Source: an uncultured Gemmatimonadaceae bacterium (lineage in GTDB: Bacteria > Gemmatimonadota > Gemmatimonadetes > Gemmatimonadales > Gemmatimonadaceae). From it: a stretch of 64,000 bases of DNA. The number at the start of each line of letters is the position of its first letter. The first letter of the stretch is position 1. The stretch spans positions 800,001-864,000 of the forward strand of contig CAVVTZ010000007.1 in the NCBI GenBank assembly GCA_963751275.1. The letters are read 5' to 3'. Below are positions 5,935 through 58,431 of the stretch, in pieces. Both the position numbers and the translations under genes were made by a program. Under the pieces are notes generated by a model that was not told where the DNA came from, did not search any database, and saw only the letters and a program-made list of their open reading frames with translations.

Positions 5935-8900
5935 ATGTCCGACCTCCAAACTCGACTTCAGACCGCGCTCGGCGACGCCTATCGCATCGAGCGCGAGCTT
6001 GGTGGCGGCGGCATGTCGCACGTGTACCTCGCGCAGGAGACGGCGCTGGGCCGCCGCGTCGTGATCAAGGTGCTGCCCCCGGAGATGGCGGCGGGCGTGA
6101 ACATCGAGCGCTTCCGCCGCGAGATCCAACTTGCCGCCTCGCTCCAGCATCCGCACATCGTGCCGCTGCACGCCGCGGCGCAGGTCGGCGACCTCTTCTA
6201 CTACACGATGCCGCTCGTGGACGGGGAATCGCTGCGCGCGAAGCTCGCGCGCGAGGGCGAACTCCCGGTGGGCGACACGATCCGCATCATCCGCAATGTG
6301 GTCGATGCCCTCGCCTACGCCCACGCGCACGGTGTGGTGCACCGCGACATCAAACCCGACAACATCCTGATCTCGGGCAATCACGCCGTCGTGACCGACT
6401 TCGGCGTCGCCAAGGCCGTGAGCGCGTCCACCGGCGGCACGTCGCTGACGTCGATGGGCTTGGCGCTGGGCACGCCGGCGTACATGGCGCCGGAGCAGGC
6501 GGCGGCCGATCCGCACGTGGACCATCGCGCCGATCTCTACGCCGTGGGCGCCACCGCGTACGAGATGCTCTGCGGGCACCCGCCGTTCAGCGGCATGTCG
6601 CCGCAGCAAGTGCTCGCGGCGCACGTGACGCTCGCGCCGGCGCCGCTCAGTTCGCAGCGCGCATCAGTGCCGCCGGCGCTCAACGAATTGATCATGCGCT
6701 GCCTCGAGAAGAAGCCCGCCGACCGCGTGCAGCGCGCCGAGGATCTGCTCACCCAGCTCCAGGCGATGGCGACACCCAGCGGCGGCATGGCGCCCACTGG
6801 CGCGACGCCCGCCCTCACGAGCGGAGCGAAGGCCGCGATCCGGCGCACGAACCCGATGCGCGTCACGATGATGTTCGCGGCCGCTTCGGTGGCGGTGCTC
6901 GGGATCGTCTTCCTGCTGCGCAACGTGCTCGGCCTGCCCAACTGGGTGCTCGGCGCCGCCGGCGTGCTGCTCCTCGCCGGACTTCCGATCATGATCATGA
7001 CCGGCCGCCGCGAGCGCGCGCGGCTCGAGGCGGCGCACACCGGCACATTCATGGTGCCGCCCGTGGGCGTCGAGAAGCTGTTCACCTGGCGGCGTGCCAT
7101 CCTCGGCGGCGTCGCGGCGTTCGCGCTGCTCGCGGTGATCGTGATCGGCTACACCGTGATGCGCGTCATGGGCATCGGTTCCGTCGGCACGCTGCAGGCG
7201 AAGGGCCTGCTCAAGGCACGTCAGCCGATCCTGCTGGCGGAATTCGAGAATCGCTCCACCGATTCCACACTGGGCCCCACGCTCACCGAGGCGTTCCGCG
7301 TCGACCTCTCGCAGTCGCAAACGGTGAAGCTGCTCGACGCGCAGGCGGTCAGCGACGCGCTCAATCGCATGCAAAAGCCACCGGGCTCGGTGCTGATCCC
7401 GGCGCTCGCGCGCGAGGTCGCCGAGCGCGAGGGCGTGCCGGCGATCGTCGAGGGGCAGATCGATCCGGTGGGCAAGAGTTTCGTCGTCTCGGCGAAGATC
7501 GTTTCCGCGAAGGATGGCGCGGTGCTCACCGCCGTGCGCGAGACCGCCGCCGCCGACGCCGACTTGATCCCCGCGCTCGACAAGCTGTCGCGCGCACTGC
7601 GCGAGCGCATCGGCGAATCGCTCGTGAGCATTCGCGCCGACGAGCCGCTCGCGCACGTCACCACCGGTTCGCTCGATGCGCTGAAGAAATACACGCAGGC
7701 GCTGCGGCTCTCGGACGTGGGGCAGGAAGAGCAGTCGGTCCCGCTCTACGAGGAAGCCGTCGCGATGGACAGCGGCTTCGCGATGGCCTGGCGCAAGCTC
7801 GGCGCGATCTACCAGAACATGGGCGCGTCCAACGTGAAGGTGATCAACGCGATCAAGAATGCGTACAAGTACCGTGACCGGCTCCCTGAACTCGAGCGGC
7901 AGGCGACGATCGCGTACTACTACAACGCGGTGGACAACGAGCCGACGAAGGTGGAGGCGGCGTATCGCGCGATGCTCGCGATCGACCCGGACAATACGAT
8001 CCCGCTCAATAATCTCTCGATCGTACTCTTTGACATGCGGCGGTACGCCGAAGCCGAGAGCCTGGCCGTGCGCTGCATGGACAACGGCGTCTTCTCCAAT
8101 TGCCCGTTCCACGCGATCCGCGCGCAGATGGCGCAAGGGAAGATGGCCGCCGCCGACACGTCGCTCGCGCGCTGGCAGCGGGCACTGCCGACCGATCCCA
8201 ACCTGGGCTTCAGCCGCTCCGGCATGGCGGCGGTCCGCGGCGACTATGCTGCGGCGGAACGGATCTCCCGCGAGAACAAGGCGGCGCATCCCGCCTCGCT
8301 CTACGTGCAGGAGATCTCCGACCAGTCGCTCGCCGCGTTCGCCGCGGATCAGGGCCAGCTGAACCGGGCGTTGCAATCGCTGCGCGCCGCGCAGGCGTCG
8401 GCGGAGGCGCGGGCGCTGCCGGGCGACTACCTGAGCCTCGCCGCGAACTACGCCCTGGTCGAGATCCGTGACCTCAATCGCTCCGCCGAAGCGATCGCCA
8501 GGGTGAACGCCGCGATGGCGAAACACCCGCTCTCGACCATGGATGCCGTCGATCGACCATATACCATCCTCGCCAGCGCGTACGCGGCGGGCGGCCGCAT
8601 CGAGGACGCCCAGCGCCTGATGGCCGAGTACGCGAACGAAGTGCCCAAGGATCTGCAGAAAGGCGATTTCAACGCGTCGGCCGCCGCCGGCGACATCGCC
8701 GCCGCGCAGGGCCGTCCGGCCGATGCGATCGCGGCGTACCGCCGCATGCGCACACAGTTCGGCTGTCCCCAGTGCGGACTGTTCGAGATCGCCACCCAGT
8801 TCCAGAAGCTCGGCGAACCCGACTCGGCGCTCGTGTACTATGAGGCCGGGCTCGCGAACTCCGGACCGCAGCGGGCGATCTTCACGGACCCCGTCACGCT

Positions 8901-9072
8901 CGCGGCCACCTATCAGCGCCTGGGCGAACTGTACGAGGCCAAGGGCGACCGGAAGAAGGCGATGGAGTATTATCTCAAGCTCGCCGACCTGTGGAAGAAC
9001 GCCGATCCCGAGCTCCAGCCGATCGTGAAGGACGCCCACGCGCGCGTCGCGCGCCTCTCGGCCGAACACTAG
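5935..9072 (+). CDS. Ser/Thr protein kinase with transmembrane helices and C-terminal TPR region
   Basis: GGGGMS, VIK, HRDIKPDN, DFG, GTPAYMAPE; about three hydrophobic helices; TPR-like helices. Confidence 0.92.
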   Translation: MSDLQTRLQTALGDAYRIERELGGGGMSHVYLAQETALGRRVVIKVLPPEMAAGVNIERFRREIQLAASLQHPHIVPLHAAAQVGDLFYYTMPLVDGESLRAKLAREGELPVGDTIRIIRNVVDALAYAHAHGVVHRDIKPDNILISGNHAVVTDFGVAKAVSASTGGTSLTSMGLALGTPAYMAPEQAAADPHVDHRADLYAVGATAYEMLCGHPPFSGMSPQQVLAAHVTLAPAPLSSQRASVPPALNELIMRCLEKKPADRVQRAEDLLTQLQAMATPSGGMAPTGATPALTSGAKAAIRRTNPMRVTMMFAAASVAVLGIVFLLRNVLGLPNWVLGAAGVLLLAGLPIMIMTGRRERARLEAAHTGTFMVPPVGVEKLFTWRRAILGGVAAFALLAVIVIGYTVMRVMGIGSVGTLQAKGLLKARQPILLAEFENRSTDSTLGPTLTEAFRVDLSQSQTVKLLDAQAVSDALNRMQKPPGSVLIPALAREVAEREGVPAIVEGQIDPVGKSFVVSAKIVSAKDGAVLTAVRETAAADADLIPALDKLSRALRERIGESLVSIRADEPLAHVTTGSLDALKKYTQALRLSDVGQEEQSVPLYEEAVAMDSGFAMAWRKLGAIYQNMGASNVKVINAIKNAYKYRDRLPELERQATIAYYYNAVDNEPTKVEAAYRAMLAIDPDNTIPLNNLSIVLFDMRRYAEAESLAVRCMDNGVFSNCPFHAIRAQMAQGKMAAADTSLARWQRALPTDPNLGFSRSGMAAVRGDYAAAERISRENKAAHPASLYVQEISDQSLAAFAADQGQLNRALQSLRAAQASAEARALPGDYLSLAANYALVEIRDLNRSAEAIARVNAAMAKHPLSTMDAVDRPYTILASAYAAGGRIEDAQRLMAEYANEVPKDLQKGDFNASAAAGDIAAAQGRPADAIAAYRRMRTQFGCPQCGLFEIATQFQKLGEPDSALVYYEAGLANSGPQRAIFTDPVTLAATYQRLGELYEAKGDRKKAMEYYLKLADLWKNADPELQPIVKDAHARVARLSAEH

Positions 9073-9187
9073 CCGAACTCCCGGCACCTTCGTCGGGGAA
9101 AAGGGTTATATTGTAGGCTGTCCGCCGCGGTTTGTTATCTGTTCGGCCGGCGGCTCAGCACCCGAGAACCCGAAGCCAGGAGACACC

Positions 9188-10090
9188 ATGCGACGCATAT
9201 CCGCCATTCTGTTGGTCGTGGGCCTCATGGCCTGCGAGAAGATCGGCTCCGGCGGCGGCACCAGCGCCTCGAAGCCCGATTCGATCACCGTACTGAACAC
9301 CCAGCTCGCGCAGGCGAAGGCCGTGGCCGCGCAGCAGGATTCGCTCCTGCAGGGCTTCCAGCAGACCACGCAGCTCTTGGCCGACATCGACAAGGATCTG
9401 TCGAGCGTGAAGGGCCTCAAGAGCCACGTGGCGGTCGACACCAAGGGTGAGAACCCGAACGACCCGCAGGCCGCGTACCGCGCGAGCCTCCAGGGCAAGG
9501 TGGCCGAAGTGACCTCGCTGCTGAAGCAGAGCCGCGCCCGCGTCGCCGCGCTGAACGAGAAGAACGAGGCGCTCGGCGGCAAGGTGGCGACCTATGAGGC
9601 GAGCATCGCGAGCCTCCAGCAGATCGTGGAGCAGGACAAGGAACAGATGGCCGCGCTGCACATCCAGGTCGACAGCCTCACGCTGGCGAACGCGACCGTG
9701 ACCACCGAGAAGGTGGCCGTGACGGACACGATGCTCACCCTGCGCAAGCAGGAGAACACGGTGTTCGTGGTGGTCGGCACGAAGGATGAGCTGATGAAGA
9801 AGGGGATCATCACGGAAGAGGGCTCCAAGTTCCTCTTCTTCGGCAGCAAGGCGATGGTGCCCGCGCGCAAGCTGGACAAGACGCAGTTCACCGCCATCAA
9901 TAAGTGGGACGATGTGCCGGTGGTGCTGCACATCACGGACAAGCCGTACAAGGTCGTGTCGCGCCAGGATCCCTCGCTGATCGAAGCGGGCAAGGATTCG
10001 GCGGGCAAGTTCAACGGCGAACTCCACATCACGCAGCCGGCCGAGTTCTGGTCGACGAGCAAGTACCTCATCATCGTAGAAGGCGCCTAA
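9188..10090 (+). CDS. Coiled-coil lipoprotein of unknown function
   Basis: LMAC lipobox; long heptad region; globular C-terminus; AGGAG RBS. Confidence 0.8.
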   Translation: MRRISAILLVVGLMACEKIGSGGGTSASKPDSITVLNTQLAQAKAVAAQQDSLLQGFQQTTQLLADIDKDLSSVKGLKSHVAVDTKGENPNDPQAAYRASLQGKVAEVTSLLKQSRARVAALNEKNEALGGKVATYEASIASLQQIVEQDKEQMAALHIQVDSLTLANATVTTEKVAVTDTMLTLRKQENTVFVVVGTKDELMKKGIITEEGSKFLFFGSKAMVPARKLDKTQFTAINKWDDVPVVLHITDKPYKVVSRQDPSLIEAGKDSAGKFNGELHITQPAEFWSTSKYLIIVEGA

Positions 10091-10108
10091 ACTTCCTCGT
10101 GAAGGCCG

Positions 10109-10144
10109 AACGGCCGGCTGATCCTTCGGGATCAGCCGGCCGTT
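10109..10144 (+). terminator. Intrinsic terminator hairpin
   Basis: AACGGCCGGCTGATCC-TTCG-GGATCAGCCGGCCGTT, perfect 16-bp stem after the stop at 10090. Confidence 0.75.
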
Positions 10145-10154
10145 TCCACATCCT

Positions 10155-10352
10155 ACAGGCGCGTGTAGGCACTAGTACCGCTTGAGACGCGCGTCTGGGA
10201 GGCAGCGTGTGGTACGAGCAGGGCGGGAGTTGTACTGCGGCTGCGCTTGTGGGGCGTGGGCGGATTGGGTCGTGCGACTCCCGCCGAGCCGTACCACACG
10301 CCGCCTCCTAGACGCGCATCCTCAAGCGGTACTAGTCCCCACACGCGCCTGT
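10155..10352. repeat. Family A long palindromic repeat, copy 1 (long loop)
   Basis: GGCGCGTGTAG..CTAGTACCGCTTGA..CGCGTCTGGGAGGCAGCGTGTGGTAC arm and its inverse. Confidence 0.9.
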
Positions 10353-10359
10353 GCGCCGG

Positions 10360-11316
10360 TCAGTCGACCCGCGACGACAGCTGCGCCGGGAACGGCTGCG
10401 AGGGAGTTGGCAGCATCACCCCGTTCACGGGCGAGAGCCGCTTCGCGCGTTTCTCCTCGTACATGAGACGGTCGGCGCGCGCGAGCAGGTCGTCCAGGTC
10501 GCGCGGCGCGTCGGGATCGTAGTAGGCGATGCCGATGCTCAGCGAGAGCAGATAGCGGCGGTCGGCGCGCGCGTTGCGGGCGCGGAGGTTCTCCTGCAGG
10601 CGCGCGGTCCACAGCTCGGCGTCGGCGCCCGCGTTCTCCATGGCGAGCACCACGAACTCGTCGCCGCCCATGCGCGCGATGATGTCCGAATCGCGGAACG
10701 TCTCCTTCAGCAGCTCCGTCGTCTCGAGCAGCGCCTGGTCGCCCACGCTGTGGCCCAGCGTGTCGTTGATCACCTTCAGCCCGTCGAGGTCCACGAAGAT
10801 GTGCGACACGCGGCGGCGCATCCGGTCCGCGACCTTGAACAGCTGGCGCGCGAGCGCGAGCAGGCCGCGCCGGTTGTAGAGCAGCGTCAGCGGATCCACC
10901 AGCGACATCTCGCGCAGCGCGGCGTGCAGCTGCTGGCGCTCGATCGCGTAGCGGATCGCGCGCACGAGCAAATGGCCGTCCACCTGGCCCTTCACGAGCG
11001 AGTCCTGCGCGCCCACCTTCAGCGCGCGCATCGCCAGCGCCTCATCGTCCACGCTGCTCAGCACGATGATCGGCAGGTCGGGCTGCTGCTCGTGGAGCAG
11101 CTTGAGCGGATGCAGGTCGTGCCCGTCGCTCAGCGAGAGGTCGAGCAGCACGGCGTCGAACTTCCGGTCGCTCATGCGGTGCAGCGCATCGCTCACCTGC
11201 GTCACGTGCACGAGGTCGAACTGCGCGGCCGCGCGGCCCGCCACCGCGCCGTTGAGGCGCCGGACGTCCCGCTCGCTGTCTGCGATCACCAATACCCGGA
11301 TCGGACCGCCGCTCAA
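10360..11316 (-). CDS. Response regulator diguanylate cyclase (REC-GGDEF)
   Basis: TTG start overlapping upstream TGA; REC with VLLDL and LVKG; RDSD I-site; RMGGDEF. Confidence 0.9.
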   Translation of the reverse strand: MSGGPIRVLVIADSERDVRRLNGAVAGRAAAQFDLVHVTQVSDALHRMSDRKFDAVLLDLSLSDGHDLHPLKLLHEQQPDLPIIVLSSVDDEALAMRALKVGAQDSLVKGQVDGHLLVRAIRYAIERQQLHAALREMSLVDPLTLLYNRRGLLALARQLFKVADRMRRRVSHIFVDLDGLKVINDTLGHSVGDQALLETTELLKETFRDSDIIARMGGDEFVVLAMENAGADAELWTARLQENLRARNARADRRYLLSLSIGIAYYDPDAPRDLDDLLARADRLMYEEKRAKRLSPVNGVMLPTPSQPFPAQLSSRVD

Positions 11317-12962
11317 ACCGCCACCCGCTCGTGCTGCGGCACCGCGACGGGCCGCGGCGGCGGCGCCAACGTGGCGCTCCGCTGGTCCAGGATCCCCATG
11401 AACAGCTTGAACAGGGCGGGGTCGAACGCGGCGCCGACGTCCGCCTGCATGATCTCGCGCGCGCGCTCGCGCGTGAACGCGGTGCGGTACGGCCGGTCGG
11501 TCACCAGCGCGTCCCACACATCGGCAATGCAAAGGATGCGCGCCGAGAGCGGGATCGCCTCGCCCGCGATCCTGTCGGGATAGCCGGTGCCGTCCCAACG
11601 CTCGTGGTGGTGCCGGATCATCGGCTTCACGTCCCACGGGAATTCGATGCCCGCGAGCATCTTCTCGCCGGCCGCCGGATGGCGCTCCATGAGCGCGCGC
11701 TCCTCCGCGGTGAGCGGGCCCGGCTTGTTCAGGATGCTCGACGGCACGATCAGCTTGCCCACGTCGTGCAGCAGCGCGCCGGCGCGGAACCAGAACAGCG
11801 TCTCGTGGTCCAGCCCCGCCATGCGCGCGAGCGCGCACGCGTAGTCGGCCACGCGGTCGCAGTGGCCGCTCGTGTAGTTGTCCTTCGACTCGATGGACGC
11901 GCCCCACTCGGCCACGATCTCCAGGAACTTCGCTTCCAGCTCGCCCAGGCGCCGCCGCGTCTCCACCACGTCGCGCCGCGCGCGCAGTTGCGAGAACAGC
12001 CGGTGCGCCGTGTTCAGCTCGCGCAGCGTGTCGCGATTGCGGTCCTGCCGCCGGTAGAGTTCGGCGCGCTCCTTGGCCGTGTGCGCCGCGAGCAGCAGCT
12101 CGTGCCGCTGCTCGGCGATCTGCCAGGCCTGGCCGAAGAACTCCTCCGCCCCGCCGAAATCGCCCGTCTCGCGCGCGATCACGCCGTAATGCTTGTACGC
12201 ATCGCCCAGCCCGCGGTGGTCGCCGGTCTGCTCCGCCAGCGTGAGCGCGGTGTCGCACCACTCGCGCGCCTTCACGTATTCCCGGCGCGCGATCCACAGT
12301 TCCGCCCGGTTCACCGCCACCGCGATCTGCGTGCCCACGTCGCCCGTGCGCACCGCCGTGTCGAACGCCTCGAGGTACATCTCCTCGGCCGAGCGCCACC
12401 GGCGCATCTGCGAGTAGAGCATCCCGATGTTGTTCAGCAGGCCGCAGAGCGGCCCGTCGAGGCCGAGGCGGCGATAACCGGCGAGCGCCGCGCGGTAGTG
12501 GGTGAGTGCCTTCGGCTGGTCGCCGCGGATCCCGGCGATCGTGCCCAGGTTCTGCTCGATCATCGCGACCAGCTGCGTCTCGCCGGCGAGCGTCGCGTAC
12601 TTCACCGCGCGGCCGTACAGGCGCGCGGCCTCGTCCAGATCGCCGCGCTGCTGGTGCGCGATCGCCATCAGATTGACCACGCTCGCCACGCCGGGCCGGT
12701 CGCTGTTGGCCATCGCCACCGCGAGCGCCGCGGCGTAGCAGTCGAAGGCCGACTCGGTGTCGGCATCGTCGGCGTAGGTGCGCCCCGTCCAGCGCAAGAG
12801 CGCCGAGGCGGTGGACGCGTGCTCGCGCTGGTCCAGGTCGTACAGCGCTTGCTCGTACATCGCGCGCGCGGCCGCCCGCTGCCCCGCGCGCTCCAGGCGC
12901 AGCGCCTCCGAGATGCGCGCCGCCAGCTCCGGCGCGAGCCCTTTCAGCTCGCGCGGCGTCAT
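11313..12962 (-). CDS. TPR-repeat HD-GYP phosphodiesterase
   Basis: N-terminal TPR helices; [35 protein letters not shown]. Confidence 0.9.
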
Positions 12963-14095
12963 TCCGGGGGCTCCGTACTGCCGCTCATCACGCCGTATTC
13001 GCGCAGTTTCCGCGCGAGCGTCGGACGCGAGATCCCGAGAATGCGCGCCGCCGCGCTGCGGTTTCCCCCGGTGATCTCCAGCATCGCCAGCACCGCCTCG
13101 CGCTCCACCAGCGCGAGCGCCTTCCCCTCCGGCGGGATCACGATCTCATGGTGCGCGCCCTGCGCCGCGTGGGTCGCGGGCATCGACATGCGCTGCTGGA
13201 TCATCATGTGCTCGGCGCCGATCGACTGTCCCTCGGACAGGATCGCCGCGTGCTCGATCACGTTCTTCAGCTCGCGGATGTTGCCGGGCCACATGTGCCC
13301 GCGCAGCGCCGCGGCCGCCGCGGGCTCGAGCGTCTTCGGCTCCAGGTCCTGCTGGCGCGCGATCTCGGCCAGGAAATGCTGCGCGAGCAGCTCGACATCC
13401 CCCGCGCGCGTGCGCAGCGGGGGCAGCACGATCCGGAAGACGTTGAGGCGGTAGTAGAGATCCTCGCGGAACTCGAGCCGCGCCACCGCATCGTGCAGCG
13501 ACGTATTGGCCGCCGTGATGATCCGGCAGCTGATCTCGATCTCCTGCAAGCCCCCGAGCCGGCGCACGCGGCGCTCCTCGAGCGCGCGGAGCAGCTTGGG
13601 CTGCAACCGCGGGGGCAGCTCGCCGATCTCGTCCAGGAAGAGCGTGCCGTTGCCGGCGAGCTCCATCAGGCCGCGCTTCTGCGCGCGCGCGTCGGTGAAC
13701 GCGCCCCGCTCGTGCCCGAACAGCTCGGACTCCAACAGCGTCTCGGGGATCGCGGCGCAGTTCACTGCGACGAACGGCTCGCCGCGCGATGCGCCTTCGT
13801 AGTGGATGCCGCGCGCGAAGAGCTCCTTGCCGGTGCCCGTCTCGCCCACGACCAGCACCGTCGTCAGGCGGCTGGACGCCACCTTGCGCGCGCGCTCCAG
13901 GGCGTCCCGGATCGCATCGCTCTCACCGACGATATTCTCGAGGCCGAATTGCAACGCTCCCCCGGGTCGTGACTCCAAGCAAGGGACTTCAGCGGGCGCT
14001 CCAAAGTAACCGGGCTCGGCGGCGTCCGGCACCTCCGGCGCGCGCAGCCGCGGAGCCGGCGGATGCGCGGTGGGATCCGCGCGCATCTTGCTCAT
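12959..14095 (-). CDS. Sigma54-dependent Fis-family activator (bEBP) lacking a sensory domain
   Basis: [41 protein letters not shown]-terminal Fis HTH; ATGA overlaps at both ends. Confidence 0.92.
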
Positions 14096-15144
14096 GCGGC
14101 GAGCGCCGACAGGCGCCGTTCGACGTCGCCCACCTGGCGCGCCGCGCCGAGCGCGCGGAAGCGCGTGAGCGCCTGCTCCCACGCGAGCCGTGCCGCCGCG
14201 GGCTCGCCGCGACGCAGCCACAACTCGCCCGCGTCGCGCTCCACTTCCGCCTCGAGCAGGGCATCCTCGGTCTCGCGCGCCATCGCGCGCGCCGCGTCCA
14301 GCGACCGTGTCGCGCTCTCCAGCTCGCCGCGCTCCCGGCCCACCAGTGCGAGCAGGCGCAGCGACTCGGCGTGACGTGCCCGGTCCCCCCGGTGCTCGGC
14401 CATCGCGAGGCCATGCCGGCACACGGTCTCCGCGTCGGCCAGCAGCCCCCGTGCGACGAGCAGTTCCACGCGGCTCAGCTCCACCGCCTCCGTCAGCGGC
14501 ACGTCCCCGATCCGCTTGGCGAGCGCGAGCGCCTCCTGCGACGCGCGCTCCGCTTCGTCGAGTTCCCCCGCCAGCGTGTGCAACCGCCCCACGTTGCAGA
14601 GCACCCAGCACGCGCCCTCCTCGTCGCCCGCATCGCGGAATCCGCGGAGGCTCAGCCGGAAGCGCGCGAGCGCGTCCTTGTCCTCGCCCTGCACCATGGC
14701 GAGCGCGCCAAGGTTCTGTTCGATCATCCCGAACAGCCGGCGCTCGCCCGCGTGCACCGCGTTCAGCCCCGCCTCGGCGTACAGACGCCGCGCCTGCTTC
14801 ACGTCGCCGCGCCGCTGCGCCACGATGGCGAGGCAATTGAGCGCGTTCGCAATGCCGCCGGCGTACGGGAGCGTGCGCGAAAGGGTGAGACTCCGCGCGT
14901 ACAGCGGCTCGGCCCCCGCCAAGTCGCCGAGCTCGCGCCGCAGGGTGCCCTTCCAGCGCAGGATGTCCGCGAGCTGCGCGGTCGGGCGGTGCGTCTCCAA
15001 CAGCGTGATCGCGAGGTCGTAGGCCGCAAGCGCTTCGCGCGCGCTGCCCTCACGTTCGAGACGCTGCGCACGGTCCGCGATGCGATGCGCCTCGGCCGCC
15101 GGCGGTGTCCGCTCCGCCGAGGAGTGCGTGATCGACTTGTTCAC
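14092..15144 (-). CDS. Stand-alone tetratricopeptide repeat protein
   Basis: Repeated TPR-like helices ([23 protein letters not shown]) similar to the TPR part of the HD-GYP protein. Confidence 0.8.
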
Positions 15145-15174
15145 GGGATGTCCCCCCGGGTTCCCGCGCCGGCC

Positions 15175-15840
15175 CTAGTGCCGCCCCCCGATCACGCCGC
15201 AGCACGTCGGCTGGTACTGCGAGGCCAGGATCACCACCGAGAAGTGCGGCACCGGGAAGGACGCGGAAGTCAACGCATCGTTGACCGTCGCTGTCAGGTC
15301 CTGATACGTCGTGACCCCATCGTCCGCGCCGATCAGGAGCCGCGACACGATGTATCCGCCGCTCAACTGCTTCGCGATCGCCTGACTCTTGTACGCGTTG
15401 GTGAAGCTCAGATCGAGCGTCAGCGTCGCCGGCGTCGCGAACTGCAGCCCGCTCGGTGACATCTCGAACACCACGTTGCGGCCGGCGTCGGCACGCATCG
15501 TGATCTTCGTCCGCTTGGTGAGTGCGCCGGCCGGCACCGTGAAGACCGCGCCGACCGATGGGATCCGGATCGCGCCGCCCTGCGCCCCGATCGCCGCGCT
15601 CGCCGACACATTGTGCTTGAGACGCGGCACCCAGCGCAGCACCCGCACCTTGTGGCCGTGATTCCCGTCGGCAGCGGCCACCCGGTCCGCTGCAGCGAGC
15701 GGTACCGCGCTCGTCATGTTCGCGGACGGCGTAGCGGTCGAGGCGCTGCGCGTCGCCAGCGGCGACGTCGTGTCGCCGCAGGCATACATCGCGCCGATGC
15801 CGGCCAACAGGGCGCCGGTCGCAGCAAGGCGGACGTTCAT
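15175..15840 (-). CDS. Lipoprotein with ZU5-like domain and C-terminal HFS motif
   Basis: MYAC lipobox; IGAQGGAI..VPAGAL..ITM..PSGLQFATPATL..PHFS; GGAG RBS before ATG 15840. Confidence 0.7.
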   Translation of the reverse strand: MNVRLAATGALLAGIGAMYACGDTTSPLATRSASTATPSANMTSAVPLAAADRVAAADGNHGHKVRVLRWVPRLKHNVSASAAIGAQGGAIRIPSVGAVFTVPAGALTKRTKITMRADAGRNVVFEMSPSGLQFATPATLTLDLSFTNAYKSQAIAKQLSGGYIVSRLLIGADDGVTTYQDLTATVNDALTSASFPVPHFSVVILASQYQPTCCGVIGGRH

Positions 15841-15900
15841 GGGGACTTCTCCGTTCGAAGGGCGGGGGAACAGCGGCATGGCGGACGAGTGTCTATCTAT

Positions 15901-15916
15901 AGCAACTGCTGTGCCT
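15901..15916 (-). promoter_or_regulatory. Sigma54 (-24/-12) promoter
   Basis: Minus strand reads AGGCAC-AGCAG-TTGCT (GG-N10-GC), close to consensus TGGCAC-N5-TTGCW, about 60 bp upstream of the operon start. Confidence 0.7.
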
Positions 15917-16010
15917 CACGTAACTCGTTGCCATTGCACGTTCTTTTTCAGCAGGTGGAACGCATCGTTCCGGGGTATCAGAACGTTACGTTACAACAGC
16001 GGAACGTTTC

Positions 16011-16041
16011 TTACCGTCACGCAACGGGACGTTACCGTCAC
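16011..16041. promoter_or_regulatory. Candidate bEBP upstream activator sites
   Basis: TTACCGTCAC direct repeat at 16011 and 16032 (21-bp period), about 100 bp upstream of the sigma54 site. Confidence 0.4.
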
Positions 16042-16048
16042 CGTGGAC

Positions 16049-16933
16049 CTATTGACCGATTCCCGCTCCGCTCGCATGCGCCCAAACCAGCCGCGAAACA
16101 TCGGCTGTGAGACGCCGAGTGACCGAGTCGCCGGCGCTCCCTTGATGCAGCACCACGAGCACGTACGGCGTGGCGGATAGCGGGTAGACGATCGCCGCAT
16201 CATGGTCGACCAGGCCATCGACCCACCCGGTCTTGTGCGCCACCGGTGTATGCGGCGGCAGGCCCGCGGGAATGCCGTCGTCGAACTCCTGCTTGAGGAG
16301 GATCGCGAGCATCGCCTTGCAGCTCGCCGGCGAGGCGGCCTTGTCCTGGGCGATCGCCGCCATCACCACGGCGAGATCGTGCGCGGTCACCGTGTTGATG
16401 AGTCCCGCGCGATACGCCGGGATGTCTTCCACGCCGCGCAGCACGCGAATATGCGGTGCGCCCAGTTCATGCATCGTCTGGGTGACCTGCGCCGGACCCG
16501 CGAGATCGATCAGCACGTTCGTCGCGAGATTGCTCGAGCGCGTGATCATGAGAAAGATCAGCTCGCTCACCGTGACCGGCTGTCCGACGCGCGCATACAG
16601 CGAGCTGTCGGAGTCATCGGCCATGTCGAGCGCGTACGGCGAGCCGTCGACGATCGACTTGAACTCGTTCTGCAGCGTGATCTTCGTGTCGAGCGAGAGC
16701 GTGCCCGCGTCCACCATGCGGTAGAGCTGGATCATCACCGGCACCTTCATCGTGCTCGCCGCGTGGTAGGTCCAATTGTCGTGGATGAGCAGCGAGTCCG
16801 CGTTCGCCGCGAGCGGCCAGTAGGCCACGGCGGTGCGCGTCGTGGAATCGACGGCGATCCGCGCGCGTACTTCCGCTTCGAGCGTGGTGGGTGGCTGGAG
16901 CGCGATGATCAGCGCCAGGATGATCTGCATCAT
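16049..16933 (-). CDS. Serine hydrolase, class A beta-lactamase-like
   Basis: ASTMK (SxxK), SSN, HKTG; signal peptide. Confidence 0.85.
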   Translation of the reverse strand: MMQIILALIIALQPPTTLEAEVRARIAVDSTTRTAVAYWPLAANADSLLIHDNWTYHAASTMKVPVMIQLYRMVDAGTLSLDTKITLQNEFKSIVDGSPYALDMADDSDSSLYARVGQPVTVSELIFLMITRSSNLATNVLIDLAGPAQVTQTMHELGAPHIRVLRGVEDIPAYRAGLINTVTAHDLAVVMAAIAQDKAASPASCKAMLAILLKQEFDDGIPAGLPPHTPVAHKTGWVDGLVDHDAAIVYPLSATPYVLVVLHQGSAGDSVTRRLTADVSRLVWAHASGAGIGQ

Positions 16934-17283
16934 GCGGACACCGTCCCCCGGAAAACGAAGTACACCGCCCCGACCAGGCAGAGCGCGGCCCAGAGGAAAT
17001 CGAGCTTGAGCGGCTGTTTCATGTAGAAGATCGCGAACGGTACGAAGACGCTCACGGAGATCACTTCCTGCATGATCTTCAGCTGGCCGAGTGACAGCTG
17101 CGTGTAGCCGATGCGGTTCGCCGGCACCTGGAGCAGATACTCGAACAGCGCGATCCCCCAGCTGGCCAGTGCCGCCACATACCATGGGCGCGCGCTGAGG
17201 TTCTTGAGATGCGCATACCACGCGAACGTCATGAAGAGGTTCGAGAGAATGAGCAATCCGGATGTCTTGAGGATCACGGGCAT
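16930..17283 (-). CDS. DMT family small membrane protein
   Basis: SNLFMTFAWYAHLK, SWGIALFEYLLQVPANRIG, QLKIMQEVIS. Confidence 0.85.
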   Translation of the reverse strand: MPVILKTSGLLILSNLFMTFAWYAHLKNLSARPWYVAALASWGIALFEYLLQVPANRIGYTQLSLGQLKIMQEVISVSVFVPFAIFYMKQPLKLDFLWAALCLVGAVYFVFRGTVSA

Positions 17284-17429
17284 GAGCGGTCCTGAGGTGA
17301 GTGATCACACCGGGGCGCCGAATATACGCGCGGCGCGCGCGCTCCGACACCGCGCGGGTTGCCGAATGCGCGCTGGCTCGTTTGTCGTGTACCCCGCGTC
17401 ATGCACCGATCCGCTTTCCGCGCTCTCGA

Positions 17430-17888
17430 ATGCCTTCGCTCACGCCGCACGCCGCCATGCCCCCGATCCCCGTGCCCGCGGACGTTTCGCGGCGCGAGCG
17501 GCTGCGGTTCACGGACTTCCGCTTCAAGCGCGCCGCCGACGGCCGCTGCAGCGCCGAGGTGGAGCTGGAATGGATGGAGGGGGTGCGCGTGCGCGGCGAT
17601 GCGGAGGGCCAATCGAGCCAGACGGTGGATCTGCGCGTCGCGGCCGAGGCGGCCCTCCGCGCGCTCGAACGCTTCTCGGATGGCTCGCTCCGCTTCGAGC
17701 TGGTGGGCGTGAAATCGGTGCGCGTCTTCGATGCGAACGTGATCATCGTGTCGGTGACGAACCACGGCGGCGGCCCATCGAAATTGCTCGGCTCGTGCCT
17801 GGTGGAAACGGATCCGGTGCGCGGCGCCGTGATCGCCGTGCTGAACGCGACGAATCGCGTCCTCGGCAATTTCATCGCGACGCGCTGA
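17430..17888 (+). CDS. Hypothetical protein; start uncertain (17430 or 17457)
   Basis: Compact alpha/beta ORF ending DPVRGAVIAVLNATNR, immediately upstream of the transglycosylase. Confidence 0.65.
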   Translation: MPSLTPHAAMPPIPVPADVSRRERLRFTDFRFKRAADGRCSAEVELEWMEGVRVRGDAEGQSSQTVDLRVAAEAALRALERFSDGSLRFELVGVKSVRVFDANVIIVSVTNHGGGPSKLLGSCLVETDPVRGAVIAVLNATNRVLGNFIATR

Positions 17889-17898
17889 CCGCGCGTCG

Positions 17899-19422
17899 AT
17901 GACCAGGTCCCTCGCGCGGTGCGCGCTGGCTGCGCTCTTCGCGGCCGCCGCGTGCCACTCCGCTCCTCCGGCCACCGCGCCGGCGCCGGGCACCGTCGTG
18001 CCTGGTGCGGCGCCACGCGACTCGATGCAGGCCGCGAGCGCACGCCCGGACACCATGCGTCGCGACAGCACCCCGATCCCGGTGCCCGAGGTGACTCACG
18101 AGGCGGTGAGCCTCTTTGGCGACTCCATCTCGGCGCCGACCATGGTAGCCGACAGCATCGCGGATTCGAGCGCGGCGCAACCGGCTCCCGTGGCCGCCGC
18201 GGCCGCACCCGCCGCCGCGACGTGGGACATCGATGTCCGCTCCTACGAAACGCGGCAGCGCGTCGCGTTCTACGTCGCGCGCTTCCAGGGTGAGGCGCGG
18301 CCCCGGTTCAGCGCGTGGCTGCAGCGCGGCGGACGGTATGAACCAATGATCCGCGCGAAGCTCAAGAAGGCTGGACTGCCCGAAGACCTCACCTATCTCG
18401 CCCTCATCGAGAGCGGCTACGATCCCAACGCGTACTCGAGCGCAGCCGCGATCGGCATCTGGCAGCTCATGACCGGCACCGCCCAGGGGACCGGCCTCCG
18501 TGTGGACTGGTGGATCGACGAGCGCCGCGATCCCGTGCGCTCCACCGACGGCGCGATCAAGTTCCTCGGCTGGCTCAACGGGCAGTTCGGCTCGCTCTAT
18601 CTCGCCGCCGCCGCATACAATGGCGGCCCCGGTCGCGTCGCACGCGGGCTTACGCGCTACGCCGATTCGCTCGAAGGGCGCACCGGCGACGACCGGTTCT
18701 TCGCGTTGGCGGAGACCGACTATCTGCGCGCCGAGACGCGGGATTATGTGCCGAAGCTGATCGCCGCGGCGCTCGTTGCGAAAGAGCCCGCGAAGTACGG
18801 ACTCGCGATCACGCTCGATCCGCCGCTCGCGTACGACTCGGCGCTGCTGGGTCCCGCGACGCCGCTGGCGTTGGTCGCGAAAGCGGCGGGTGCGCCGCTG
18901 CCGAAGATCATGGAGCTGAACAACGGGATCCTGCGCGGGATGACGCCGCCGGCCGGACAGTGGTGGGTACGGATTCCGGCTGGAAGCGGCATCGCGTTCG
19001 ACTCGGCGTTCGCACTGGTCCCAGCGAGCAAAAGATCAGGAATCCAGCGCTATACGGTGAAAAACAACAGCAGTATCACGACAGTAAGCCATAAATTCAA
19101 GCTATCATCGCGACAGTTCATCTGGTTCAACCCGCAATACAAGAAGAGCAAGAGCGGCGTGGTCGGAGCGGGGAAGGTCGTGCTCATCCCCACGGCCGCT
19201 ACCCTCTCTGCCGCGCGCGACGTGCCGGACCCCGCGATCGAGAAATACGGTTCATCGCGCCAGCATTCGGTGACGCACGTGGTGAAGAAGGGCGAGACGC
19301 TCACGTCGATCGCGACGCGGTACGGGACTACCGCGGCATCGCTTCGAAAGCTGAACGGGTTGAAGACGAACGCGATATACCCGGGTCAGGTCCTGCTCAT
19401 CAAGAAGGGCAAGAGGCGATAG
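17899..19422 (+). CDS. mltD: MltD-like lytic transglycosylase with LysM domain(s)
   Basis: Lipobox AAAC; LALIESG, AIGIWQLM, AAYNGG, ETRDYVPK; C-terminal HVVKKGETL LysM. Confidence 0.85.
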   Translation: MTRSLARCALAALFAAAACHSAPPATAPAPGTVVPGAAPRDSMQAASARPDTMRRDSTPIPVPEVTHEAVSLFGDSISAPTMVADSIADSSAAQPAPVAAAAAPAAATWDIDVRSYETRQRVAFYVARFQGEARPRFSAWLQRGGRYEPMIRAKLKKAGLPEDLTYLALIESGYDPNAYSSAAAIGIWQLMTGTAQGTGLRVDWWIDERRDPVRSTDGAIKFLGWLNGQFGSLYLAAAAYNGGPGRVARGLTRYADSLEGRTGDDRFFALAETDYLRAETRDYVPKLIAAALVAKEPAKYGLAITLDPPLAYDSALLGPATPLALVAKAAGAPLPKIMELNNGILRGMTPPAGQWWVRIPAGSGIAFDSAFALVPASKRSGIQRYTVKNNSSITTVSHKFKLSSRQFIWFNPQYKKSKSGVVGAGKVVLIPTAATLSAARDVPDPAIEKYGSSRQHSVTHVVKKGETLTSIATRYGTTAASLRKLNGLKTNAIYPGQVLLIKKGKRR

Positions 19423-19449
19423 TAGCACCACTCCCTGACTCCGTGAGAC

Positions 19450-19606
19450 GCACCCCCAACGCCGTGAGGCGTGAGGCGTGCGCCGAACAGACTGCACCGC
19501 GTGCGACGAGACCCGAACTCCGTGAGTCACTCACGAAGCTCGGGTCTCGCCGCACGCCTCACAATCAGTTCGGCGCACGCCTCACGCCTCACGGCGTTCG
19601 GGGTGC
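19450..19606. repeat. Family B-related nested palindrome
   Basis: Outer CCCCAACGCCGTGAGGCGTGAGGCGTGCGCCGAAC and its inverse enclose an inner CCCGAACTCCGTGAG hairpin. Confidence 0.75.
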
Positions 19607-19620
19607 CAATACCGCCGTTC

Positions 19621-20313
19621 TTAGTCGACCGTGCCCCGTCCTTTATAGCCTCTCATCACCGCCAACTCGTACCCATTCCGCGGATCCTGCCCCAGCATCC
19701 GCATGGACTCCACGGTCTGCGAGCCGCGGTTATACACCAGCAGCGCGATCTGCACGTCCCCGCGGTACTGCGTGATCAGCGTCCGCAGGTAGCGGAATCC
19801 CACCCGCAGATTCGTGTGAACCTCGGTGAGGTTCTCACGGGTGGTGTCGCGCTCGAAGTACTTCGCCGTCGCCGGCATGATCTGCGTGAGCCCCACGGCG
19901 CCCGCCGAACTCACGGCGCGCTCGTTGAACTGGCTTTCGACCTTCACGAGGCGGAACGCCAGGTCCGGGTCGATCCCCTCCTCGAGCGCCACGTCGTACA
20001 CCGGCGCCGCGACATCCGCGCCCACCCTATACCGCGCCGAGTAGTCCAGGATCGCGTTCGCCCGGCTCAGCTGGGCGCGCGCGATGTCCAGATCGCTGCG
20101 GGTCGCGGCCAGATCAGCCGCCAGGCGGTGCGACTGCGCCACCAGTCCAAAAGCAAATCCACCGTTGGAAGAGGCTTCCGCCTCCCGGGGCTGCTCCGCT
20201 GGGATGAGCGCGATCGCCGCGATCAACCCGCCCACCAGCAACCCCTTCCTGATCCGCGCATTGCGGCGGATCCGGTCGCCACGGTGCGAATACGTCACTT
20301 TGGAAAATTTCAT
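19621..20313 (-). CDS. SLT-domain lytic transglycosylase
   Basis: VKVESQF, GAVGLTQIMP, ALLVYNRG; N-terminal TM helix; GGAGG RBS. Confidence 0.85.
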   Translation of the reverse strand: MKFSKVTYSHRGDRIRRNARIRKGLLVGGLIAAIALIPAEQPREAEASSNGGFAFGLVAQSHRLAADLAATRSDLDIARAQLSRANAILDYSARYRVGADVAAPVYDVALEEGIDPDLAFRLVKVESQFNERAVSSAGAVGLTQIMPATAKYFERDTTRENLTEVHTNLRVGFRYLRTLITQYRGDVQIALLVYNRGSQTVESMRMLGQDPRNGYELAVMRGYKGRGTVD

Positions 20314-55320: not shown

Positions 55321-57568
55321 CTATTTGCGTGACTGCGCGTCCACGACGGCCACGGCCGCCATGTTGACGATGCTCTGCACATCGCACCCGGCTTCCAGCA
55401 CGTGCACCGGGAGCCGCATGCCGACGAGGATCGGCCCGATGGCCGTCGCCCCGCCCAGCTCTCTCAGTAACTTGTACGCGATGTTGCCCGCGCTCAAGTT
55501 CGGGAAGATCAATACGTTGGCCGGCCCATTGAGCAGGCTGAGCGGGAACTGCGCGTGCAGCTTCTCCTCGTTCATCGCGAGATCGGCCTGCATCTCGCCG
55601 TCCACCACCAGGCTGGGGTCGCGGTGGCGGATGAGATTGACCGCGGCGGCCACGCGCTCGGGCTCCTCGTCCTTCACCGAACCGAAGTTCGAGAAGGAGA
55701 GCATCGCGATCCGCGGCTCGATGCCGAGCGTCCGGAGCAGCTTGCCCGCCGAGATCGCGATGTGCGCCAGCTTCTCGGCGGTGGGCGCGATCGTGACGGT
55801 CGTGTCGCCGCAGGAACACGGTGTGCTTCTCGAACACCAGCATGTAGAAGCCGCTCACGAGGCCGCCCTTGGGGTGCGCGCCGATCACTTCGAGCGCGGG
55901 GCGGATCGTGGCCGGATACTGCTGCGTGACGCCGGAGACGAGCGCATCGGCGTCGCCGAGCGCGACCATGAGACTGCCGAAGTAGTCCGGGTCACAGACG
56001 CGCTCGCGCGCCTGCGCCTCGGTCATGCCTTTGTGCTTGCGCCGCTCGAGCAGGTACTGCGCGAACGCCTCGCGTTTCGAGGCATCGGCCGGATCCTCGA
56101 GGGTGAGTCCCTCGAGGGAGATGCGCACCTCGGAGGCGGTCCGGCGGATCGCTTCAATGTTGCCGAGGAGCACCGGCTCGGCGATCCCTTCGTCGAGCAC
56201 GATGCGGGCGGCTTTGATGATCCGTTCGTCCTCGCCCTCGGGGAAGACGACGCGGCGCGGGTCCTGGACGGCCTGGTTGATGAGGCCGCGCATGATGCCG
56301 CGCGCGCGGCTGAGGCGCGATTCCAGGAGCGCGCGGTAGTCGCCCGCGTCGATGATGACGCGCGCGACGCCGCTGGCGACGGCGGCCCACGCGACGGCGG
56401 GGGCGACCCAGAGCAGGACGCGCGGGTCGAAGGGGAAGGGGATGAGATAGTCGCGCCCGAAGGCGATGTTCTTGAGGCCGTAGAGGCGCGAGACCGAGTC
56501 GGGCACGGGCTCGCGCGCGAGCGCCGCGAGGGCGCGGGTGGCGGCCATCTTCATCTCCTCGGTCACCTGGGTCGCGCGCGCGTCGAGCGCGCCGCGGAAG
56601 ATGAAGGGGAAGCCGAGGAGGTTGTTGACCTGGTTCGGGTAGTCGCTGCGTCCCGTGGCGACGATCGCGTCGGGGCGCGCGGCGAGCACTTCGTTGGGGA
56701 GGATCTCGGGGGTCGGGTTCGCGAGGGCGAAGACGATCGGGTCCGGCGCCATCGCGGCGATCATGGCACCGGTGATCACGCCGCCGCGCGAGAGGCCGAC
56801 GAAGACGTCGGCGCCGCGCAGCGCTTCGGTGATCGTGCGCATGTCCGTGGCGCGCGCGAAGCGCGCCTTGTACGGGTCCATCTCGATCGTGCGGCCCTCA
56901 TAGACGACGCCGTGCACATCGCACATGGTGATGTGCTCGCGCGCAACGCCGAGGCGGACATAGTGTTTAGCCGTAGCAATGGCCGCGGCGCCGGCGCCGG
57001 AGAAGACGACGCGGACCTGGTCGATCTTCTTCCCCACGATCTCGAGCGCGTTGAGCAGCGCGGCGCCGGAGATGATCGCGGTGCCGTGCTGGTCGTCGTG
57101 GAAGACGGGGATCTTGAGCGTGCGCTTGAGTTCTTCCTCGATGCGGAAGCAGTCGGGGGCGCGGATGTCCTCGAGGTTGATCCCGCCCACGGTGGGCTCG
57201 AGCATCTGGCAGAAGCGGATCACATCCTCGGGATCCTCGGCGTTCACTTCGATGTCGAAGACATCGATGTCGGCGAACTGCTTGAAGAGGTTCCCTTTGC
57301 CTTCCATCACCGGCTTGCCGGCGAGCGCGCCGATGTTGCCGAGTCCGAGCACGGCGGTGCCGTTGGTCACGACCGCGACGAGATTGCCGCGCGCGGTGTA
57401 GGTGTACGCATCGTCGGGATTCGCCTGGATGGCGAGGCACGGCTCGGCGACGCCCGGGGTGTACGCGAGGGCGAGGTCCCGCTGGTTGTTGAGCGGCTTG
57501 GTGGGGACGACCGCGATCTTGCCGGGCCGGCCACTGCTGTGATAATCGAGGGCGTCCTGTTTCTTCAT
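55321..57568 (-). CDS. maeB: NADP-dependent malic enzyme with phosphotransacetylase-like domain (frameshift near 55815)
   Basis: [45 protein letters not shown]-like C-terminus. Confidence 0.95.
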
Positions 57569-57608
57569 CCTACGGAAAGTTACTCGCTTGCGACGGGTTC
57601 TCCTACCT

Positions 57609-57770
57609 ACGGCGTCTGTGGGGCCTAGTACCGCTTGAACAGCGCGTCTAGGAGGCAGCGTGTGGTAGTGCTCGGCGGGAGTAGCACGCCGTACAACTCA
57701 CGCCGAGCCGTACTACACGCAGCCTCCTAGACGCGCCCCTCGAGCGGTACTAGGCCCCACACGCGCCTAG
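57609..57770. repeat. Family A palindrome, copy 11 (hybrid arms)
   Basis: Left arm CTTGAACAGCGCG, right arm CGCGCCCCTCGAG. Confidence 0.9.
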
Positions 57771-57777
57771 TGAGTAG

Positions 57778-58431
57778 TCAGCGACCCTCGTCCAGCGCGT
57801 TTAGCTTGTCGAGCCGCGCGGCGTACCGTTCCACGACGAATTCGCGGGTCAGGAATGTCTCCACGATCGCGGTGGCCAATCGCGGGCCAATGAGGGATCC
57901 CGCGAGCGCGAGGACGTTCGCGTCGGAATGCTCGCGCGCGCTGATGGTGGTGGTCACGTCGTGGCAGAGGGCGGCGCGGATGCCCTTGATCTTGTTCGCG
58001 GCGATGCAGGCGCTCACGCCGGTGCCGTTCACCACGATGCCGAACCGCGCGCGGCCGGCGGCCACCTCGCGCGCGACGAGCGTGGCGGCGGCGGTCGTGT
58101 CGGGGAGCGCCTTCTCGGGGCCGACGAGGTCGGTCACGGTGTGCTGGAGCTGGTAGAGGCGCGCCGCGACCGCTTCCTTGATCACCGCGCCCGACTGGTC
58201 GCACGCGAGCGCGACGGTCGTCTGCACGAGCGGCTTCGGGTCGAACGAGCCGTAGGCGCGCATCGGCAGCACCGACGTGGGCGTATCGGGCCCGGTGAGG
58301 ATCACGCCCAATTCGCGCGCGGCCGCGCGGGCGCCGGGCGTCACGATCGCGCCGCGGATGTCGATGATGCGCGCTCCGTCGCGCGCGAGGCGGCGCACTT
58401 CCCGCTCGGTGATCGCCCGTTGCTCGGCCAT
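57778..58431 (-). CDS. RpiB/LacA/LacB family sugar-phosphate isomerase-like protein with N-terminal extension
   Basis: IAANKIKGIRAALC, AREHSDANVLAL; ITEREV..VTPGAR N-terminal module. Confidence 0.8.
   Translation of the reverse strand: MAEQRAITEREVRRLARDGARIIDIRGAIVTPGARAAARELGVILTGPDTPTSVLPMRAYGSFDPKPLVQTTVALACDQSGAVIKEAVAARLYQLQHTVTDLVGPEKALPDTTAAATLVAREVAAGRARFGIVVNGTGVSACIAANKIKGIRAALCHDVTTTISAREHSDANVLALAGSLIGPRLATAIVETFLTREFVVERYAARLDKLNALDEGR

Follow-up and report, generated by a model that had tools for sequence, protein, structure and literature searches.

A conserved lipoprotein, TPR, sigma54 activator and HD-GYP module of Gemmatimonadota as a candidate peptide-signaling system

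Gene organization of the locus

The subject of this analysis is a group of five co-oriented genes on the minus strand of a 64,000-nucleotide stretch of DNA (hereafter the window) from an uncultured Gemmatimonadaceae bacterium, located on contig C7 of the genome (G000, completeness 83%). The genes, A to E, encode a ZU5 lipoprotein, a free tetratricopeptide repeat (TPR) protein, a sigma54 activator, a TPR protein fused to an HD-GYP domain and a REC-GGDEF protein, the last two being predicted enzymes of cyclic di-GMP (c-di-GMP) turnover. The locus is a real, conserved and undescribed module with the following genes and features.

15175–15840, minus strand: gene A (221 aa), lipoprotein (Cys21) with a flexible linker, a single ZU5/GAIN-like domain (about residues 61–207) and a short tail
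14092–15144, minus strand: gene B (350 aa), free TPR superhelix, cytoplasmic, a candidate receptor for peptides or a modulator
12959–14095, minus strand: gene C (378 aa), sigma54 enhancer-binding protein without a sensor domain
11313–12962, minus strand: gene D (549 aa), TPR fused to HD-GYP, predicted c-di-GMP phosphodiesterase
10360–11316, minus strand: gene E (318 aa), REC-GGDEF protein, predicted diguanylate cyclase, accessory
15238–15246, minus strand: His199-Phe200-Ser201, the HFS motif of A, predicted autoproteolysis site with the cut between Phe and Ser
15178–15240, minus strand: tail of A, Ser201 to His221 (21 residues), candidate signaling peptide or precursor
15900–15917, minus strand: sigma54-type −24/−12 element, GG-N10-GC, score 11 of 14
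15979–15995, minus strand: palindrome with an AAC-N5-GTT core, the predicted upstream activator site at which C binds; it lies 78 bases upstream of the sigma54 element

All five genes translate without internal stops; ATGA overlaps join B to C and C to D, a TTGA overlap joins D to E, and 30 bases separate A from B. This is the arrangement described in the original prediction, which was made from the DNA letters and open reading frames of the window, and its domain calls (ZU5 lipoprotein, TPR, sigma54 activator, TPR-HD-GYP and REC-GGDEF) agree with Pfam. The prediction of a sigma54-type promoter is borne out by the element at 15900–15917 and extended by the conserved palindrome upstream of it, and the claimed similarity between B and the TPR part of D is found at 33% identity over 332 residues (E 2e-36), with all three quoted motif sets (LRWKG/LRWTG, QRRGD/QQRGD and MIEQNLG) present. 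As also predicted, no histidine kinase is encoded among the neighbors scanned, from 5935 to 20313, where the gene at 17430–17888 is without a family.

Conservation and linkage in Gemmatimonadota

Gemmatimonadota are barely studied, and lipoprotein A is present in about half of the genomes sampled (146 of 301 matched by the A alignment). B-like TPR domains occur in 114 of the 301, and the matches in G000 and 13 further genomes stand out clearly as a top group (E < 1e-50). When linkage was counted over the best 150 of 186 TPR matches and the best 150 of 270 A matches, A was found within 5 kb of 117 of the 150 TPR matches listed, directly upstream and on the same strand in 88 (about 0.8 by chance; 80 genomes), and a listed TPR match was found near 108 of the 150 A matches listed.

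The activator C marks 34 loci, with the architectures ABCD (11), CE (9), BCE (6), BC (3), ABCDE (2), ACD (1), CDE (1) and ACDE (1); all four of A, B, C and D are present in 13. In this count the frameshifted loci L128 and L133, which look like ABCDE, fall below thresholds, and the HD-GYP protein of L037 is a large divergent gene. Eleven deep-branching C rows from four families all have A and an HD-GYP protein beside them, together with a TPR that is either free or fused, and the reduced loci all fall in one shallow subclade (support 99) that includes this window, with the ACD locus (L062) as the exception. Because the deep rows all have A, a TPR and HD-GYP and the reduced loci are, with that exception, confined to one subclade, A-B-C-D is likely the ancestral order as judged from these sequences, with the reduced forms as losses and E as a late addition. 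Thus, of the five-gene order, whose conservation the original prediction had set as a check, the A-B-C-D part stands across four families, whereas E is not part of a conserved core. E accompanies C in 19 of the 34 loci; apart from L129, these belong to a single shallow subclade, and E was for this reason rejected as a core part.

The expectation that TPR protein B is required with the activator did not hold, as B is missing at 12 of the 34 C loci, nine of which carry C and E alone; B was accordingly rejected as an obligatory partner of C. In five genomes with C-E loci, the best scores with the B alignment were 163–198 bits over frames of 359–624 residues, which are read here as other TPR types from an uncalibrated search, and four of these five genomes carry A elsewhere. 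In nine other loci, all of one subclade, B lies directly upstream of C in the absence of A and D. In L038, L040 and L042 the module is doubled in tandem as A-A-B-D-[A]-B-C-D, with an OppA-like gene behind it and tails that differ among the A copies.

Fold and predicted cleavage of lipoprotein A

Pfam places a ZU5 match in A above cut-off (E 5e-6, residues 80–116), and the lipoprotein cysteine, Cys21, is invariant. The structure model (mean predicted local distance difference test score, pLDDT, of 80; core above 85) is a ZU5/GAIN sandwich with a long, low-confidence linker on the membrane side. The five best VIA-align rows are ZU5 proteins (Z 8.0–10.9), with ankyrin ZU5 at Z 10.9 (root-mean-square deviation, rmsd, 3.1; 120 residues aligned), and GAIN rows score Z 5.5–7.6, with BAI3 GAIN at Z 7.6 (rmsd 3.3, 117 aligned); Foldseek also places A in the ZU5/GAIN fold (E 2e-6). 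Zhang et al. (2012, PMC3482391) described bacterial ZU5 domains as parts of large toxins and of surface proteins. No NCBIfam model above cut-off names A or B, and their ESM Atlas neighbors are unnamed ZU5 and TPR clusters, mostly from Gemmatimonadota.

In the model, the HFS motif, of the H-x-S/T kind typical of these autoproteolytic domains, lies in the turn between strands 192–199 and 202–207, immediately before the last strand. The motif is present in 149 of the 150 top A relatives and in 88 of the 90 A genes of mapped loci. NLRP1 chain 6x6c_E aligns to residues 75–200 of A, that is, up to Phe200, and ends at residue 1212; the NLRP1 cleavage serine given in PMC11760013 is residue 1213, adjoining the end of this chain. 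Bacterial MAIN domains are likewise reported to be cut at HF/S (Brogan and Rudner, bioRxiv 10.64898/2026.05.12.724683). From this agreement in fold, position and motif, A quite probably cleaves itself.

What would such a cut release? Pfam, the lengths of relatives and the model all place no cargo domain on A, and the cut can therefore free the tail only. At E 1e-30 or better the A alignment finds 626 protein clusters, and the 150 best of them range from 137 to 275 residues in length. Tails among these 150 best relatives span 7–50 residues (median 10), with the first 7–8 positions conserved and positions 1–3 being S, G/R and Y in most. The tail in this window deviates from the family at positions 2–3, as does that of the near relative L128, and one common 7-residue tail is found in many A loci. 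Some long tails contain two cysteines (window 15178–15240, L038:11031-11717, L045:1977-2867 and L128:3972-4778), a pair that could form a disulfide or tether the tail.

TPR proteins and candidate peptide import

B matches only TPR families in Pfam, with TPRs from residue 15 to the C-terminus, and its model is a tight TPR superhelix (pLDDT 95). The best fold match is the degron receptor APPBP2 (Z 30.7, rmsd 2.7, 338 aligned). RRNPP structures score Z 18–24 against B, with Rap, AimR, NprR and PlcR, like LGN, at Z 20–24 (LGN and Rap 23.6), compared with about 30 for APPBP2 and MalT; similarity among such repeat folds cannot decide descent of B from the RRNPP family. No RRNPP family stood among the best 25 of 40 Pfam families for the B alignment or among 60 of the 142 sequence matches listed, a listing that excludes nothing. 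An asparagine ladder with 40-residue spacing runs through the family, Asn being found at positions corresponding to B103, 144, 184 and 224 in 105, 102, 106 and 100 of 112 TPRs, respectively; B of this window keeps Asn103, Asn144 and Asn184 and has Ser at position 224. In Rap, a conserved Asn anchors the peptide (PMC11343458). The superhelix model and the ladder support TPRs shaped like peptide receptors, as the original prediction had proposed. It had left the ligand open, and the HFS motif of A together with importer genes in the neighborhood now points to A's own tail.

The tail class tracks the TPR clade, with 4 changes for short aromatic tails against 42.5 in shuffled data after exclusion of seven near-duplicate or broken loci. 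The B proteins make up a clade of their own (support 95), which in the loci mapped is found beside C and nowhere else. Free TPR copies also arose repeatedly beside TPR-HD-GYP genes without a sensorless activator. A TPR-activator fusion was sought as well and set aside: none of 12 longer B relatives has a sigma54 domain, a weak result from only 8,000 scored candidates.

A route for peptide import is suggested by the surroundings of A. An OppA-like gene (Pfam SBP_bac_5) is present in 25 of 80 A loci where fewer than one is expected in the 1,018 kb of A loci examined, given 727 matches in 301 genomes. These genes mostly touch a module gene, in several arrangements and orientations, and Opp permease or ATPase genes add five loci, bringing importer genes to 30 of 80. 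An S9 prolyl-oligopeptidase-family gene also recurs near A (L047:15329-17326 and five other A loci), and its product could trim or clear peptide.

c-di-GMP enzymes

By Pfam, D consists of TPR and HD_5. Its HD, HHE...GYP (HHExxDGxGYP) and RxY motifs are intact, the HD, HHExxDGxGYP and metal-ligand residues are invariant in 14 of 14 aligned proteins, and D is predicted to be a c-di-GMP phosphodiesterase. E matches REC and GGDEF, retains the GGDEF motif, the RxxD inhibitory site and the acceptor Asp, and is predicted to be a diguanylate cyclase. A gene for a c-di-GMP enzyme is the steadiest neighbor of C, being found at 31 of the 34 loci, which makes c-di-GMP feedback on C possible. Activators of the FleQ type bind c-di-GMP through an Arg cluster (R138/R144/R185/R334) and a linker (PMC10723142, PMC10714721). 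In C, Arg94 after Walker A is invariant, a residue that in FleQ serves ATP binding too, and there is no REC linker. Proteins of about 1,600 residues with the order TPR-HD-GYP-GGDEF-AAA_16-TPR lie beside A in L037 (10460-15277), L071, L079-L081 and L085-L087, several with OppA/OppB/OppC genes.

The sigma54 activator and its promoter

Sensorless sigma54 activators such as PspF and HrpR/S are regulated by partner proteins in trans. C is likewise sensorless, having Sigma54_activat from residue 55 and HTH_8 and no REC, GAF or PAS domain; an alternative start 47 codons later gives a 331-aa form, and the absence of a sensor, as originally claimed, holds for both. Walker A, the GAFTDA loop, Walker B, the arginine-finger region and the Fis-type helix-turn-helix (HTH) are intact. 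C is present in 19 of 301 genomes sampled and forms one clade (SH-like approximate likelihood ratio, SH-aLRT, 97) in a quick tree of 67 rows from which two thirds of unrelated control loci were excluded; GAFTDA is the activator loop in most members, and the 25 best-listed relatives are all titled Gemmatimonadota or Gemmatimonadaceae-type.

Sigma54-type sites were scored over about 300 bases before A genes against a −24/−12 consensus (maximum 14, threshold 10), two loci with short upstream DNA being dropped. Such sites precede the first A gene in 8 of 11 C loci and 27 of 59 loci without C (35 of 70 together), compared with none of 13 internal A genes and 3 of a background set of 184 operon-first genes from a single contig of this genome. 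Where loci are reduced, the site is kept before the first remaining gene, even where C itself is first. The 17-base palindrome scores 263 against 134–142 in three base-shuffled sets, in promoters preselected for a sigma54 site and with a shuffle that keeps neither local composition nor kinship. Of 22 promoters at C loci, 16 carry it, either at −78 to −80 or at −98 to −100. No sigma70-type promoter was found in 9800–16300. C quite probably activates the promoter of its own operon, which would give positive feedback.

Inspection by eye, without a count, showed a sequence resembling an IHF site immediately 5′ of the −24 element; the genome has one HU/IHF-family gene. Its rpoN is above cut-off and split across two frames (G000:C11:276948-278400), as is another activator gene (C7:569066-569985), and both splits are likely assembly errors. 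In L111 (492), L112 (1750), L117 (1740) and other syntenic loci, a second sigma54-type site is found on the strand of C, about 4 kb upstream of the gene. Its syntenic position in the window would be near the lytic transglycosylase gene at 19621–20313, a possible target of C.

A second activator clade (support 97) carries an N-terminal domain with a REC score only sometimes. Next after the activator in these cassettes come the gene of a paralogous lipoprotein and a gene for a TPR protein, and the cassettes often adjoin A-TPR-HD-GYP loci; this clade could drive promoters in loci without C. The activator-lipoprotein-TPR trio thus recurs in both activator clades and in another class. The second cassette of this genome, at C7 about 55400–58400 (L050:7423-10419), encodes a sigma54 activator whose N-terminal domain has no name, a lipoprotein that is ZU5-like and whose gene breaks into two frames close to its end, and a TPR protein.

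Discussion

A fundamental question is how a lipoprotein, two TPR proteins and a sensorless activator would act together. Our preferred reading, to which we assign a probability of roughly 45%, is RRNPP-like peptide signaling from a self-cutting precursor, with c-di-GMP as output and sigma54-dependent positive feedback. A would be exported, lipidated and cut by itself near its end; the tail would be freed, would return through an oligopeptide importer and would be bound by the cytoplasmic TPR domains of D and B. Tail binding would alter the activity of D and set c-di-GMP breakdown, E would supply c-di-GMP under an unlinked kinase, and C would bind the palindrome and activate its own operon. That the tail is the TPR ligand has about an even chance of being correct. 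It is rather unlikely that B gates C directly, and otherwise B would act on D or soak up peptide. In its boldest form, which we offer tentatively, a phylum-wide cell-to-cell pheromone of this Gram-negative-type lineage would be the Stachel-like last strand of a self-cleaving ZU5/GAIN lipoprotein, imported so that the TPRs gate the phosphodiesterase and the sensorless activator in a positive loop on the A promoter.

Several observations weigh against peptide signaling by the tail. No listed A match lies near 33 of the 150 TPR matches listed, and among the 34 activator loci A is absent from 19 and B from 12. Kin are not independent, so that all counts overstate. The covariation of tail and TPR may be plain shared descent. 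No importer gene is seen in 50 of 80 A loci, this window included, and the only OppA-like gene of this genome is unlinked to the module. HFS is missing from two of the 90 A genes (L032 and L131), and the paralogous lipoproteins of second cassettes, related to the A family with an hhalign probability of 95%, are without the His.

Further such points fit an alternative, which we consider unlikely, in which the TPRs read another ligand, either a protein or a small molecule as in MalT domain III, and A belongs to the output of the sigma54 regulon as a co-regulated lipoprotein of the envelope, with its last strand kept for folding. MalT domain III binds a sugar, and it ties as the best fold match of B (Z 30.5, rmsd 3.4, 337 aligned), with Pfam TPR_MalT matched in 15 of 16 B proteins. 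In another class (families f11 and f12), several A relatives are without the His and some without the Ser while the R-Y-A-L-A strand is kept, and conservation of the tail is equally expected of a structural last strand. B and C persist without A in nine loci. Cleaved MAIN fragments, moreover, are reported to stay bound as a strand of the sheet and to come off with SDS or heat only (bioRxiv 10.64898/2026.05.12.724683). However, this alternative leaves unexplained why A stands directly before a TPR gene in every architecture, tandem A-TPR repeats included, why HFS is near-invariant in a cargo-free protein, and why importer genes are neighbors.

It is improbable, though compatible with a peptide signal or with none, that C is an unregulated or c-di-GMP-tuned amplifier and that B acts on D by TPR-TPR contact or as a decoy rather than on C. 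The nine C-E loci retain promoter and activator without any TPR, the c-di-GMP enzyme genes accompany C as described above, and free TPR copies arose where there is no sensorless activator to control. RcbA and RcbB of Vibrio vulnificus interact through their TPRs and are a precedent for TPR-on-TPR control (PMC12282931). The position of B directly upstream of C in loci without D and A, although confined to one subclade, and its separate clade, found in the mapped loci only beside C, argue against this view, and the reduced loci are nested in the activator tree and hence likely derived. Finally, a same-cell reporter of envelope or export stress, whose tail is freed only when the lipoprotein is pulled, unfolded or mis-sorted and which senses envelope state rather than cell density, is quite improbable: the proposal that GAIN and MAIN fragments separate under force (bioRxiv 10.64898/2026.05.12.724683), the membrane tether through a long low-confidence linker and the little kin specificity of a 7-residue tail common to many loci would suit it, but A has no adhesion domain to transmit force, the distinct tail classes and the differing tails of tandem A copies are in keeping with communication, and the difference from the preferred peptide-signaling reading is one of trigger only.

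How does the module compare with known systems? It shares with the RRNPP(A) systems of Bacillota (Rap-Phr, NprR-NprX, PlcR-PapR and AimR-AimP) a gene for a predicted exported precursor, its candidate peptide at the C-terminus, next to the gene of a cytoplasmic TPR protein, together with oligopeptide permease genes near part of its loci and conserved Asn residues that may correspond to the groove Asn of Rap, Asn226 (PMC11343458). It differs in that the RRNPP precursor is a short propeptide cut by outside proteases, whereas the linked exported gene here encodes a folded ZU5 lipoprotein of about 200 residues (170–250) with its own cleavage motif; no RRNPP-type short propeptide gene was found, open reading frames below 40 residues not having been searched. 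The precursor gene lies upstream of the receptor gene, and the phylum is diderm. Moreover, the TPR is N-terminal or free, the output is HD-GYP, GGDEF or a separate sigma54 activator, and no N-terminal HTH or 3-helix bundle is present in B or in D, where the TPR comes first and HD-GYP behind.

MAIN/ZU5/GAIN proteins (YfkN, PIDD, NLRP1 FIIND and adhesion G-protein-coupled receptors) have the same fold with HFS in the turn before the last strand; A, in contrast, is stand-alone, lipid-anchored at its N-terminus and without cargo, and the freed piece would be the tail. The Stachel of adhesion receptors acts on its own fused receptor, and A is not fused to one. Like PspF and HrpR/S, C has AAA+ and HTH domains only, and PspF models match it below cut-off; it differs as a separate clade inside the operon that it is predicted to activate, with no PspA or HrpV neighbor seen among the families scanned. 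RcbA and RcbB are likewise two TPR proteins encoded in one operon, and one of them has a c-di-GMP enzyme fused to it, but this enzyme is a cyclase rather than a phosphodiesterase, RcbA has an extra C-terminal region, and the available text mentions no lipoprotein or sigma54 activator (PMC12282931).

Literature searches, with subscription journals largely uncovered, returned only unrelated or component-level papers on this gene combination and none linking Gemmatimonadota to RRNPP-type or TPR-HD-GYP signaling. The main text of the MAIN preprint mentions neither Gemmatimon, lipoprotein, TPR nor ZU5 (bioRxiv 10.64898/2026.05.12.724683). We know of no system with this set of parts. The module lacks two features that define RRNPP systems; it likely works like RRNPP.

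According to Brogan and Rudner in the same preprint, the C-terminal MAIN fragment has no known signaling role (bioRxiv 10.64898/2026.05.12.724683); if the tail is a signal, their question of signaling by this fragment becomes testable. A signaling tail would also provide a link between the tethered-agonist principle of adhesion receptors and bacterial peptide signaling. The boldest reading, if true, would mean that RRNPP logic was invented independently and that a GAIN-type cleavage product of bacteria has, for the first time, a role in signaling. Even if the peptide step fails, a new sigma54 regulon would remain, with a predicted promoter, activator site and activator clade.

Neighboring genes

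Convergent with E on the plus strand, the gene at 9188–10090 lies behind a Ser/Thr kinase-TPR gene at 5935–9072; its product is predicted to be a lipoprotein, matches no Pfam family and has a long region resembling a coiled coil. On the other side of the module, 16049–16933 (minus strand) is a class A beta-lactamase-family serine hydrolase gene that serves as a site marker in syntenic relatives. It is followed by the plus-strand gene at 17430–17888, whose 152-residue product, without a Pfam family, is conserved in L033 and L039.

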